Source of the DNA: a virus
Direction: 5' to 3' (one strand)
Virus genome (UHGV): UHGV-1586850
Length of the DNA stretch: 11,751 nucleotides
The notes below the pieces were generated by a model. The model was not told the origin of the DNA, did not search any database, and saw only the letters and a list, made by a program, of their open reading frames with translations. This document shows positions 8,333-11,751 of this stretch, piece after piece; position 1 is the stretch's first letter; each line of letters begins with the position of its first letter. Made by a program: the position numbers and the translations under genes.

Positions 8333-8638
8333 ATGACACGGAACACCGAACTCACCCGCACCGCCCTCTACCGTCTGGCCCTGCAGCGTTTCGGGCCGGA
8401 CGCACAGGCCCTGAAACTGACAGAAGAGGCCGCTGAACTGGCGGCCAGTGCCGCCCGCAACCTGAACGGACAGGGCAGCGAAAGTGACCTCGCGGCAGAG
8501 CTGGCAGACGTGGAAATCATGACAGAGCAGCTGCGCCTTCAGGGAATGGACCGGCTGATTGACTTCCACAAACAGAAAAAACTGGAACGCCTTGCCGCAC
8601 GGCTGGGCGTCATGTACACCGGAGATACTGAACAATGA
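8333..8638 (+). CDS. MazG-like all-alpha nucleotide pyrophosphohydrolase (putative)
   Basis: 101 aa with EExxE (TEEAAEL) followed by ExxD (AAELADVEI) acidic motifs in predicted helices, as in MazG/HisE-type NTP-PPases. SD GAGGG (8322-8326). Confidence 0.5.
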   Translation: MTRNTELTRTALYRLALQRFGPDAQALKLTEEAAELAASAARNLNGQGSESDLAAELADVEIMTEQLRLQGMDRLIDFHKQKKLERLAARLGVMYTGDTEQ

Positions 8639-9318
8639 CAGACCAGGATAAACACATTGAGAAACTGAAAAAGTTGCTGGCGCTGGCCGCATCCGGCAAC
8701 CCTCACGAGGCCGCTCTGGCACTGCGCCGTGCCCGTAAACTGATGGATGTTCACGGCATCACACATTCCGACATCGCCATGAGTGATATTGATGAAACCA
8801 TCAGTCACTACTGGCCGACAGGCAGCCTCCGTCCACCGCGCTACATGCTGGGCCTGATGAACATCATCCGCGAGGCATTTGGTGTTAACTCCATCATTCA
8901 CCCCGGCACATATCCGGGTGTGGGGTTCTACGGCAACCGGGAACGGGCTGCACTGGCTGCGTACACCTGGGAAGTGCTGGCCCGTCAGCTGAAAAAGGCG
9001 CGTCAGCAATATATCAGCGCACAGAACAAAAGAATAAAAACTGCCACCCGTACCAGCCGTGGTGACCAGTTTGCTGAAGGCTGGGTGCTGGCCGTTATCA
9101 GTGAAATACAGTCCTTCGCCCTGACCGATGACGAACGTGAACTGATGCAGCAGTGGCTGGAACATAAATACCCGCAGACGCAAACCACCAGGGCGCGTAA
9201 ACCGGGAAGAAGCCGCAATGGCGACGCCTCGCGCTATGCGGGGTTTCGTGAAGGGCAGAACGTCAGACTGCACCGCCCGGTCAGTGGGCAGGAACAACAG
9301 AAACTGGAGGCCAGATGA
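8635..9318 (+). CDS. Conserved phage early protein with DUF2786-like N-terminus (227 aa)
   Basis: ATGA overlap with the upstream gene. N-terminal KLKKLLALAASGNPHEAALALRRARKLM resembles the DUF2786 motif common in prophage early regions. Confidence 0.65.
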   Translation: MTDQDKHIEKLKKLLALAASGNPHEAALALRRARKLMDVHGITHSDIAMSDIDETISHYWPTGSLRPPRYMLGLMNIIREAFGVNSIIHPGTYPGVGFYGNRERAALAAYTWEVLARQLKKARQQYISAQNKRIKTATRTSRGDQFAEGWVLAVISEIQSFALTDDERELMQQWLEHKYPQTQTTRARKPGRSRNGDASRYAGFREGQNVRLHRPVSGQEQQKLEAR

Positions 9319-9545
9319 TTACGCTATCAGGTAAAAGCCGGAAATTAAAAGCCTGCCGAATATCTGCCAGATACCTTTTTGCCCGCGCCTTTTTTAAGAA
9401 CGTCAGGCCGGGGATCACAATTGGTGTTATTGCCGGACGCGAACAGGTTGAAAAATACATGTCAGGTGCATGGTGGAATAACGACCCTGTCATTGCTGCC
9501 CGTAATATTCATATCAGTTGGGGGGATATTCAGAATGACGGCTGA
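9315..9545 (+). CDS. Hypothetical small basic protein (76 aa)
   Basis: ATGA overlap with the upstream stop (9315-9318). Unrecognised. Confidence 0.45.
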   Translation: MITLSGKSRKLKACRISARYLFARAFFKNVRPGITIGVIAGREQVEKYMSGAWWNNDPVIAARNIHISWGDIQNDG

Positions 9546-9750
9546 ATCTGTTGTATGTGCCCTGTTCTGGTATTGTTTTGTCGGTTGGTGTACTGCTGAA
9601 CTGCACCGCCGTTCAGGGTTTTATTCACGTTACAGTGGTGCTGGCTACTGGATTAGCTGGTCGGTGATGTTCCTGTGCTGGCCTGTGGCGCTTCCTTTAT
9701 ATGTCGATTATATCGGTGGCGCAGGTAAAAGGAGCAACGATGATGACTAA
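9535..9750 (+). CDS. Small membrane protein (71 aa, two predicted TM helices)
   Basis: In-frame ATG at 9535 preceded by GGGGGGA (9520-9526). Hydrophobic segments VVCALFWYCFVGWC and WISWSVMFLCWPVALPLYV. The ORF-track start at 9379 is unsupported. Confidence 0.5.
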   Translation: MTAESVVCALFWYCFVGWCTAELHRRSGFYSRYSGAGYWISWSVMFLCWPVALPLYVDYIGGAGKRSNDDD

Positions 9751-10192
9751 ACAACGTCTTATCCAGCTCATTCATATTGCCCGTAATGAACTGGGTATGG
9801 ATGAAGACACCTACCGCCAGATGTTACAGGGGCTGACCGGTAAAGCCTCAACCAAAGGAATGGATACCACACAACTAAACTGCGTGCTGGAATCCATGAA
9901 AAGGAAAGGCTTTCGCGTTAAGCCTGCCGGAAAAGCCAGCTCCGGTTTACCGCTGGATAACCATCCGCAGTCCAGGAAAATCCGTGCGCTATGGCTTGAA
10001 ATGGCTGCTGCCGGCATTGTTCGTGACCGTTCAGAAAATGCATTAGCGAGGTGGATCAAGCGGGAAACGGGCATCAGCGCCCTGCGCTGGCTCAGTACTG
10101 AACAGGCAAGCAGTGTTATTGAGAAACTGAAGAAGTGGCAGCGCAGAGCTGCGGGAGTCAAACATGAGCGACCTGAATCAGTTTCGAAGTAA
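9740..10192 (+). CDS. gemA: GemA-like protein (Mu gp16 / DUF1018 family)
   Basis: SD AAAAGGAG (9727-9734) 5 nt before ATG 9740. N-terminal TKQRLIQLIHIARNELGMDEDTYRQML matches the gp16/GemA signature as I recall it. Sits immediately upstream of mor, as in Mu. Confidence 0.65.
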   Translation: MMTKQRLIQLIHIARNELGMDEDTYRQMLQGLTGKASTKGMDTTQLNCVLESMKRKGFRVKPAGKASSGLPLDNHPQSRKIRALWLEMAAAGIVRDRSENALARWIKRETGISALRWLSTEQASSVIEKLKKWQRRAAGVKHERPESVSK

Positions 10193-10562
10193 AGGGCCGG
10201 AACTCCTGGTGGAGCTGGCACAGCATACCTCTGAGACCGTTCGCGAGATTATTGATATTGAGCCCGCAATTGCCGACCAGATTGGTCAGGCCGTCGCGAA
10301 CCGAATGATGCAGGTCTGGGGCGGGCAAAACGTTTATTTCCCGATGGGCATGGTATGGAAGGTCAGTCAGCGCGACCGGGAAATCTTCAGGGAGTTTAAC
10401 GGACGCAACCACCACGAACTGGCCCGCAAGTTTGGTGTTTCGCTTCAGTGGGTCTACAGCGTGGTTAAGCGGGTCAGAAAAGAAGAACTGGATCGGATGC
10501 AGGGCAGGTTGTTTGATGAAGATCTGCCAGAGGAGACGAAAGACGTTAACAAATCCAGATAA
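10164..10562 (+). CDS. mor: Mor-like transcriptional activator (Mor/C family)
   Basis: 132 aa. C-terminal GGQNVYFPMG ... FREFNGRNHHELARKFGVSLQWVYSVVKR matches the conserved Mor/C HTH region (compare Mu Mor GGGQVYIP ... FNGRN ... YGV ... VYK). Last gene before the intrinsic terminator. Confidence 0.85.
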   Translation: MSDLNQFRSKGPELLVELAQHTSETVREIIDIEPAIADQIGQAVANRMMQVWGGQNVYFPMGMVWKVSQRDREIFREFNGRNHHELARKFGVSLQWVYSVVKRVRKEELDRMQGRLFDEDLPEETKDVNKSR

Positions 10563-10605
10563 TTCCTGCTTGTTAAAGTCCTTTCAAAAATCTCCTTATT
10601 GTATA

Positions 10606-10638
10606 AAAGCACGGTAGACCCCTTACCGTGCTTTTTTT
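10606..10638 (+). terminator. Rho-independent terminator ending the early operon
   Basis: Stem AAAGCACGGTA (10606-10616) / TACCGTGCTTT (10624-10634), 7-nt loop GACCCCT, then a run of T's to 10638. Confidence 0.8.
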
Positions 10639-10676
10639 ATGCTCTCTCTTTAGTATTCAGGATGCAGGGAGAAAAT

Positions 10677-11309
10677 ATGTTTGACGTTTCGTTGTTAAAT
10701 CTGCCATGGGCAACACTGGTGACCCTGACCAGTGGCTATATTGGGTATTTTATTGCGAATGTGGGACTGAAGGATCACCACAAGCCCATTGAGGTGACTT
10801 TTTCTTCGCTGATTTTTGGCCTGACAGCAATGATGGCTTACCAGGCTGTTATGTGGGCAGGTCTGAATGCCTGGCTGGCAACACCACCAGCACTTCTGTG
10901 TGCCGTTACATGCGGTGCGTGGTGGCGCAGGTACGGTCGCAAATGGATGTACAGATTACTGTGGAATAATGATATTTCATGGTCTGACGATACCAGCTCA
11001 GCATGGCAGGCAATGTTTGATCAAACAGGCTTCAGCGTTACCGAGGTCAGAGTGATTCTTCGCGATGGTTCCGGTATGATGTCACGGCTGCCAGGGAACT
11101 TTGAAGAGTGGCCTAACGGTCCGTTTACCCTGGGGAATAAAGGCGATATGGTTCTTTACGTCACGCACAGCAGCCCTTCAGGCAGTAACGAATGGGAAGA
11201 GTATAAAGGCGTGGTTGATAAGTACTGGGGAGCTCTGGCAACCTATATTCCAGCAGATCAGATTGCCAGAGTGGAGATCAGGCGCGTTCGTGCAACGAAC
11301 GATGAATGA
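10677..11309 (+). CDS. Integral membrane protein (210 aa; three N-terminal TM helices plus a soluble C-terminal domain of about 125 aa), function unknown
   Basis: SD AGGGAG (10665-10670) 6 nt before ATG 10677. Hydrophobic segments at about residues 9-31, 40-63 and 68-83. The ORF-track start at 10599 lies inside the terminator hairpin and is rejected. Confidence 0.7.
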   Translation: MFDVSLLNLPWATLVTLTSGYIGYFIANVGLKDHHKPIEVTFSSLIFGLTAMMAYQAVMWAGLNAWLATPPALLCAVTCGAWWRRYGRKWMYRLLWNNDISWSDDTSSAWQAMFDQTGFSVTEVRVILRDGSGMMSRLPGNFEEWPNGPFTLGNKGDMVLYVTHSSPSGSNEWEEYKGVVDKYWGALATYIPADQIARVEIRRVRATNDE

Positions 11310-11312
11310 TGT

Positions 11313-11474
11313 TTATTTTTTCCCTGGGGCAGGGGCTGCCGGCATAGTGGTTTTATTGGCAGAGGAAGACGATTCTCCTTTTCTACCGGAATCGCGCTCG
11401 AACGTCACGATGTGCTTGCTTTTGGGCTTTTCTGAGTAATCCAGGCTATCATGCTTATTGTTTTGAGTAGTCAT
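11313..11474 (-). CDS. Possible small hydrophilic ORF (53 aa), speculative
   Basis: ATG (complement of 11472-11474) preceded by AAGGA (complement of 11483-11487) at 8-nt spacing. Low-complexity product MTTQNNKHDSLDYSEKPKS... Below the ORF-track size cutoff. Confidence 0.2.
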   Translation of the reverse strand: MTTQNNKHDSLDYSEKPKSKHIVTFERDSGRKGESSSSANKTTMPAAPAPGKK

Positions 11475-11549
11475 TGGAATCATCCTTTTTGTTGCGGGTC
11501 ATGTTTCAGCAAACTCGATTCTAAGTTGCCAGGAAGGATGATTTCAATG
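11472..11549. repeat. 16-bp inverted repeat (15/16 match) with 46-bp spacer
   Basis: CATTGGAATCATCCTT (11472-11487) versus the reverse complement of AAGGATGATTTCAATG (11534-11549). Each arm read outward contains AAGGA-N8-ATG, an SD plus start codon. Confidence 0.45.
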
Positions 11550-11629
11550 CCCGACTTATCTATCGTATAGCGGAAAAGAATTTCAGTTCTGTTCACCAGA
11601 ACCCATGTTAACCCACTCCAATTCGTTAT

Positions 11630-11751
11630 TTATCTCACGGATCCCCCTTCATTTATCTCATGTCTGATCATGTAATCCAGCAGATGATGCTCCGCAAGAA
11701 TCACAATGTGCTGGACTTCAGTCACCACATGCATATTAATGCCGCGATCGT
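11630..11751 (-). CDS. Possible 3' end of a minus-strand gene entering from the right window edge, speculative
   Basis: 39 sense codons open to the window edge, ending at TAA (complement of 11630-11632). Too short to assess. Confidence 0.2.

Follow-up and report, generated by a model that had tools for sequence, protein, structure and literature searches.

What does a membrane-protein gene do between mor and the end of a transposable prophage, and does it act alone? The window analysed here, the whole 11,751-nucleotide stretch of virus genome UHGV-1586850, carries such a gene, encoding a protein of 210 amino acids (hereafter the large gene and the large protein). A sequence-only reading had set it where a Mu-type phage would carry C and the late genes, at a conserved phage junction, and had described a terminator-insulated single gene of optional cargo followed by low-coding DNA. 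We compared the locus with complete Escherichia coli genomes, phage records and protein families and modelled both of the proteins that it proved to encode; the features are collected in Table 1.

The window carries a transposable prophage of the BcepMu type, integrated in yjjP. In the annotation of E. coli ABU 83972, which carries the same prophage, the early operon comprises a ner-like gene, the transposase, an ExeA-type B protein, gam, gemA and, immediately 3' of gemA, mor, all reading toward the genome end. Holin, SLT lysin, DUF3486, large terminase and DUF935 portal genes lie beyond the repressor on the opposite strand, which places the annotated holin and SLT lysin ~11 kb from the membrane-protein gene, in the divergent late operon. 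Because the late genes diverge beyond the repressor and the related phage PhiKM is classified as Bcepmuvirus, the early operon is inverted relative to Mu, and mor is its terminal gene, adjoining the genome end. An inverted early module was reportedly described for BcepMu and B3 by Summer et al. and Braid et al. in 2004. With mor closing the early genes at the genome end, neither C nor a junction with the late genes is to be expected, and the interval from mor to the transposition end is a cargo slot rather than a mor/C junction. The earlier placement of the gene after mor is thus correct, but Mu was the wrong frame of reference for a BcepMu-type phage, and the premise of a conserved junction with the late genes is not supported: the prophage ends 1108 bp past the mor stop codon. 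The locus resembles BcepMu/B3-type phages in its early operon running outward to the genome end and in lysis and head genes diverging beyond the repressor; it differs in the cassette after mor, found in a minority of E. coli members only.

Two other genes of this prophage were noted. Just 5' of gemA, a short early-operon gene (9535-9750, + strand) has a strongly hydrophobic product (...VVCALFWYCFVGW...WSVMFLCWPVALPLY...), putatively a second small membrane protein of the early region, and a Dam-type adenine methylase gene (1192-1956, + strand) lies between the late operon and the repressor.

The right end was located by megablast of positions 10100-11751 against complete E. coli genomes, 114 of which cover at least 80% of the query. 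Similarity breaks off at 11670 in most of the 30 matches listed, and the host genes that follow vary among these matches (tnaB, gspL, yodD, a permease, an autotransporter and others), which marks 11670 as the terminus of a transposable prophage that inserts at random. This end closes in ...GTCTGATCA and is preceded by two direct ATTTATCTCA repeats with a spacing of 23 nt, probably transposase-binding sites. The same terminal 40 nt are present in L021, and nearly the same sequence ends prophages of Citrobacter, Serratia, Salmonella and symbionts (L005-L011, L018, L021). A terminator-like hairpin on the - strand (11585-11603), whose core TTCACCAGAAC is kept in Serratia loci, lies between the prophage end and the promoter of the second gene described below; it could block transcription reading in from the host, or be another protein-binding site. 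In the PhiKM record (L003, 4650-5907), a host-like gene annotated 'Fe2+ ABC transporter permease' begins ~195 bp after mor and is followed by tail-fibre genes on the other strand, an order which suggests that the deposited record joins both phage ends via packaged host DNA.

Table 1. Features of the mor-to-end interval and its surroundings, in window coordinates.
Feature	Position	Strand	Basis
mor, final gene of the early operon	10164..10562	+	Pfam Mor, 1.1e-43; Mor family protein in ABU 83972 annotation
Variable segment of ~1.1 kb, missing from the majority E. coli variant	10523..11630	.	Similarity to Ecol_867 (L021) ends at 10522 and resumes at 11631-11670
Intrinsic terminator hairpin and T-run, insulating the large gene from the early operon	10605..10641	+	Scan; fold; covariation
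Candidate weak promoter within the terminator: -35-like TAGACC (10615-10620, in the loop), 17-nt spacer, -10-like TATGCT (10638-10643)	10615..10643	+	Comparative conservation
Shine-Dalgarno AGGGAG, 5 nt 5' of the ATG	10666..10671	+	Read from sequence
Large gene, 210-aa inner-membrane protein (phrog_12870, distant DUF6338 branch)	10677..11309	+	ORF, PHROG match, homologues, model, dN/dS
Three predicted membrane helices (residues 11-28, 37-60, 65-97), the third reaching into the cytoplasm	10707..10967	+	AlphaFold
Predicted cytoplasmic beta-rich domain (residues 119-205), putative Sm/SH3-like small barrel	11031..11291	+	
Partner gene, 53-aa disordered proline-rich protein	11313..11474	-	phrog_15726, 1e-41; RefSeq annotation; locus conservation
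Conserved inverted repeat: arm over the -35 (11534-11549), arm over partner SD/start codons (11472-11487)	11472..11549	.	16-nt arms, 94% complementary
Sigma-70 promoter of the partner gene: TTGAAA, 18 nt, TAGAAT, 10/12	11518..11547	-	Scan; conservation
Right transposition end: two direct ATTTATCTCA repeats, terminal ...TGATCA	11628..11670	+	Repeat search; match ends
Host chromosome, yjjP, outside the prophage	11671..11751	.	Annotation; present in 5422/5426 E. coli genomes

The large gene is optional in this prophage lineage. The early region (8635-10560) occurs in 640 of 5426 complete E. coli genomes (~12%), including ST131 and ABU 83972, and 132 of them, ~20% of the lineage, carry the large gene, leaving ~80% of relatives without the cassette. 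In the commonest variant (Ecol_867) the mor stop and the prophage end are separated by 163 bp without any gene, and similarity to the phage records PhiKM, Phi06_2974 B and KP12 is lost at about 10520. The locus is therefore variable among related Mu-like genomes, most E. coli relatives lacking the gene, and the gene matches no core lysis or morphogenesis family; both results agree with the reading of it as optional cargo. In eight Enterobacterales loci (Citrobacter, two from Serratia, Symbiopectobacterium, Pantoea, Arsenophonus, Salmonella diarizonae and Phlomobacter), a homologue 35-69% identical stands directly after mor and is followed by the same terminal sequence, in phages whose transposase is only about 40-56% identical to that of the window; by these comparisons, the large gene is no recent stray. 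Across 50,697 phage records, tblastn returned a Synechococcus phage protein (29% identity) as the sole relative.

Pseudomonas Mu-like phages have regions of genomic plasticity that serve as accessory slots (PMC4378225). The cassette is like the morons of Mu-like phages in that near-identical phages either have it or lack it, a terminator insulates it and it occupies a fixed plastic site. It differs in being a convergent two-gene unit, in having a composition like the rest of the phage and in having kept the same slot through deep phage divergence. Among the usual marks of a moron, we thus found variable presence at one site but no deviant composition (GC 0.46-0.52 for the large gene versus 0.49-0.57 for the early region); as to promoter and terminator, there is an upstream terminator, a partner-gene promoter that matches consensus at 10/12 positions and a large-gene candidate at 8/12. 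Some phages hold other genes in the slot between mor and the cassette, namely an 80-aa ORF with a polyproline end (NPPPPPPKC) or a DUF551 gene (L041/L044 5664-5906; L054 5743-6000), and where the 80-aa ORF occurs the terminator still stands directly 5' of the large gene.

The same pair is also found in other contexts: with a candidate serine recombinase upstream (from its translated N-terminus in L012 and L015, and a weak HTH_7 match in L024-L026), with an adjoining Dam gene at a likely prophage end, or with a DUF4411/M78 peptidase pair two genes downstream. Such settings, away from phage early operons, favour an autonomous module. We also considered a role linked to transposition ends and rejected it, as the pair is found at a distance from Mu-type ends too. 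In one Rhizobiaceae locus (L013 9117-9950), a Dam gene 42% identical to that of the window lies directly 5' of the homologue, beside a seryl-tRNA synthetase-like gene.

The large gene is real and, as first described, starts behind its own Shine-Dalgarno sequence. Its frame is open from 10599, with the ATG at 10677 and the stop at 11307-11309. We weighed the view of the ORF as a chance frame, or as a functionless relic in decay, with which the lack of an annotated function in any library would agree, and consider its probability negligible. It is refuted by conservation: dN/dS against orthologues is 0.10-0.21, a profile search over 1.84 billion representatives returned 522 family clusters (among the 150 matches listed, mostly proteins of 195-245 aa matched near full length), and 24 residues are invariant across 36 homologues. 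The AlphaFold model of the protein is confident (pLDDT 84.7).

That model bears out the three N-terminal transmembrane helices proposed earlier. The N-terminal segment and loop 2 have no lysine or arginine, loop 1 has two such residues and the stretch after helix 3 has five, a distribution from which, by the positive-inside rule, an N-out/C-in topology in the inner membrane is predicted, with the C-terminal domain, a putative Sm/SH3-like barrel, facing the cytoplasm. The C-terminal domain had been called unrecognised, and Pfam, NCBIfam, PADLOC and PDB sequence searches indeed gave no match for the large protein or for its small partner; neither matched any of the 5027 models of PADLOC-DB v2 at E ≤ 1. 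Foldseek against PDB found nothing at E ≤ 0.001, and in BFVD the membrane part was weakly similar to LydA-type holins (E 0.008-0.1). The large protein matched no known family of defence proteins, holins, channels or exclusion proteins. The nearest family is Pfam PF19865 (DUF6338), to which no function is assigned: relatives 55-57% identical to the large protein score 24-28.5 bits against it over helix 2, helix 3 and the linker, and 20 of the 36 homologues match it weakly, with a single one (P0050, 28.5 bits) passing the gathering threshold of 26.5 bits. The window protein itself gave no match to PF19865 at E ≤ 1 and so falls short of that threshold. On these scores we class its family as a distant sister branch of DUF6338. 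A single paper was found to mention DUF6338, and literature searches on the RefSeq and PHROG entries yielded nothing of use.

Two parts of the earlier description had to be given up. In the supposedly low-coding DNA after the large gene lie a conserved minus-strand gene of 53 aa (phrog_15726) and its promoter, before the prophage ends, and the membrane gene, insulated by a terminator as claimed, is not a single gene but one half of a convergent two-gene cassette. The stops of the two genes are 3 nt apart, and the partner gene has an alternative start at 11483. Against an 88.6% identical E. coli allele its dN/dS is 0.107 at a dS of 0.47; both genes are under purifying selection. The pairing itself is conserved: in 54 of 55 distinct loci with downstream DNA, a convergent small ORF ends within -25 to +60 nt of the large-gene stop, and a strict test for a proline-rich, charged C-terminus was passed by 43 of those 54 ORFs versus 4 of 667 control ORFs from the same DNA. 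The partner also accompanies homologues in alpha-proteobacterial islands, gamma-proteobacterial prophages, IMG/VR contigs and metagenomes. It is absent only from degenerate symbiont loci and one other, the large gene standing alone in L009, L010 and L051 (symbiont or degenerate prophages).

The small protein has no Pfam family, and AlphaFold gives it no secondary structure. A sequence search with it returned only near-identical copies from E. coli and Salmonella, and its wider conservation rests on position and motifs. Across the loci, the small proteins begin with an MT(T/E)K-type sequence and contain between one and four [SN][YH]xPxT-like motifs; the enterobacterial ones have DYSExPK plus VTFE, and C-termini read PPxPxKK, PPPSPKKK or similar. 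The lysine and proline codons of this tail differ between lineages, which indicates that the protein itself is conserved.

The existence of a conserved partner bears on two explanations that involve the large protein alone. In the MscS core, an Sm-like beta domain comes after three helices arranged N-out/C-in, the layout predicted here too, and Sm-like folds often form rings; the large protein might therefore be a small MscS-like or other ion channel, acting as a lysogenic-conversion fitness factor with no link to phage. We regard this as very improbable, as there is no Pfam MS_channel match and a housekeeping-type benefit explains neither the small partner nor the restriction to mobile elements. 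Membership of the MscS family was dropped, MscS being in none of the fold-search match lists.

Somewhat less remote, though still improbable, is that the large protein by itself is a superinfection exclusion factor of the P22 SieA type, which would keep DNA from entering at the inner membrane, the small ORF being irrelevant to that function. SieA of P22, an inner-membrane protein of 162-164 aa, is predicted to have three transmembrane domains; lysogens express it from its own promoter, and it suffices for exclusion. SieA proteins are of three types, and FxRYPxEAxxFNK is the C-terminal SieA motif (PMC10883804). The large protein is likewise prophage cargo with a similar membrane layout, an inner-membrane protein of three predicted helices encoded outside the virion and lysis genes. 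It has no sequence relation to SieA, however, and adds ~110 residues (the predicted cytoplasmic barrel) and a small partner gene; the SieA motif is absent from its sequence, and the tblastn search of the phage records brought up no SieA-type relative and no detectable kinship with other named exclusion proteins. Its soluble domain is predicted to be cytoplasmic rather than periplasmic, and the tight conservation of the small partner would be left unexplained.

How the two genes are controlled was examined on both strands. The claim that a strong terminator closes the early operon held up: the terminator scan found a hairpin (10605-10635) of 13 pairs followed by seven T, and the fold of the region has z = -3.6 versus shuffles. 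An A-run 5' and the T-run 3' of the stem mean that the terminator could act in both directions. At the same place, related phages have three unrelated stems (GCACGG.., GCGCAA.., CACAG..), and in the covariation analysis 5 of 9 pairs changed in a compensatory way, 94% of cells were paired and 0 of 500 shuffles did as well, so that the hairpin is conserved in its structure and not in its sequence. While the stems change, the loop keeps T.GA (as TGGATA or TAGACC) and TAT(T/G)CT follows the T-run at a spacing of 17-18 nt. This pattern suggests the hypothesis of a weak promoter built into the terminator that would drive the large gene. The embedded candidate agrees with consensus at 8/12 positions and is degenerate in some loci (L005, Arsenophonus-type); a scan of the + strand for consensus sigma-70 promoters at 9/12 found none for the large gene.

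On the opposite strand, the elements of the partner-gene promoter are kept in Citrobacter, Serratia, Symbiopectobacterium and Salmonella loci. The scan found no terminator-like site on the + strand 3' of the large gene, and with no terminator between the two genes the small-gene transcript should run antisense into the large gene. The inverted repeat around the partner start is also present in related loci and could sequester the partner's ribosome-binding site (as an anti-SD) in transcripts that come from host DNA; its + strand arm creates a mini-ORF of 10 codons (11540-11572). Distant homologues on unrelated contigs (L019, L098, L099, L104) share another block, ATTGCGTC...GCGCTACGTTTTGCGAATGAC, ~45 nt upstream, probably their own promoter or leader, and this distinct conserved block suggests a cassette that moves together with control DNA of its own. 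The mom/com genes of Mu lie at the right end of Mu, mom encoding a DNA-modification enzyme. They resemble the large gene as an optional outward-reading gene beside the transposition end under unusually tight, multi-layer control; the large protein differs in having no sequence or structural relation to them.

The placing of the large gene also suits its main rival explanation, in which the pair helps the lytic cycle of its own phage: only after induction would terminator read-through yield the large protein, which would be holin-like or host-killing and adjust membrane state or the timing of lysis, while the small protein applied an antiholin-like brake. The large gene comes last among the co-oriented genes of the early operon, no consensus sigma-70 promoter was found on its strand, and it has kept its place after mor across diverged phages. 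Paired systems of this kind include lambda S105/S107, P1 LydA/LydB and T4 T with RI/RIII, and class I holins have three helices with N-out/C-in topology. The large protein shares this topology by prediction, as a membrane effector with a dedicated inhibitor would, and the weak LydA-type similarity in BFVD points the same way, although such similarity is generic to helical bundles. Unlike those pairs, the cassette is not beside an endolysin, its large protein is twice the usual holin size and its partner is convergent and disordered. The prophage has its holin and SLT lysin cassette elsewhere, away from the large gene, the two-gene cassette is missing from about four-fifths of close E. coli relatives, and loci outside phage early operons, with conserved upstream DNA of their own, encode the same pair. 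We judge this explanation possible but unlikely.

The small protein and the barrel of the large protein are both predicted to be cytoplasmic, and two observations hint at a link between them. Among 24 de-duplicated pairs, uncorrected for phylogeny, the net charges of the small protein and of the cytoplasmic domain are negatively correlated (Spearman -0.55, p = 0.006). PxxPxK-type tails are a general ligand type of SH3-like barrels. By analogy, the tail of the small protein would suit the putative SH3-like barrel as a ligand.

The account we favour, tentatively and with a little less than even confidence, is that the large gene is the membrane component of a self-contained, convergent two-gene accessory cassette in the mor-to-end slot, specifying a latent membrane effector and a cytoplasmic regulator or antidote for use in phage conflict. 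The large protein would be made at a low level, from the weak terminator-embedded promoter or by terminator read-through, and convergent transcription from the small gene would damp it further. The small protein, disordered and presumably abundant, may bind the cytoplasmic barrel through its NYxP-type motifs and PxxPxKK tail, and the pair would then be a latent membrane effector held by its regulator or antidote. The carrier element could benefit in phage-phage or phage-host conflict, by excluding an incoming phage or by membrane collapse once the partner is lost. On this reading, a membrane effector under tight control would work with a small protein of the cytoplasm, probably in conflicts between phages; exclusion, abortive infection and lysis control, all named in the sequence-only reading, are plausible candidate roles.

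Several points weigh against this account. Homology ties neither protein to any function, the promoter candidate for the large gene is weak and is degenerate in the L005 and Arsenophonus-type loci, and expression in the lysogen is only predicted. A strict toxin-antidote dependence is at odds with the persistence of the large gene without the small one in three loci, and the long-term hold on the same slot in diverged phages also fits a role in the phage's own cycle. Gp30/gp31 of phage Butters form a two-protein prophage defence. With this pair and with abortive-infection modules of the toxin-antitoxin type, the cassette has in common its two genes, its carriage by a mobile element, its pairing of a membrane protein with a small one from the cytoplasm, and a suspected logic of an effector kept in check; it differs in that its genes are convergent and not co-transcribed, in lacking homology to them, and in a large gene that survives partnerless in some degenerate loci.

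A more specific version is rather unlikely as a whole. It envisages a new two-component membrane conflict system in which a constitutive, disordered NYxP-repeat protein would dock its PxxPxKK tail on the Sm/SH3-like barrel and so close a ring-forming three-helix pore. Failure of small-gene transcription or translation, on infection by another phage or on prophage induction, would open the pore, with the terminator-embedded promoter set against the convergent one, and the system would be spread across Proteobacteria on transposable phages, prophages and islands.

The cassette is new, uncharacterised prophage cargo, and its interest lies in its conserved convergent pairing and its control layout. 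If it is a working effector-regulator module, it would add a compact and widely distributed family to the prophage-borne conflict systems, give a first functional handle on DUF6338-type proteins and mark the BcepMu-type slot between mor and the transposition end as a place to seek further cargo. The conserved layout of the terminator, the promoter-like elements embedded in it and the opposing promoter offers a testable case in which a potentially harmful gene would be held low at a mobile element's edge. Even without a phenotype, the genome map of this prophage type is corrected, and DNA once supposed to be low in coding content is seen to hold a real gene.
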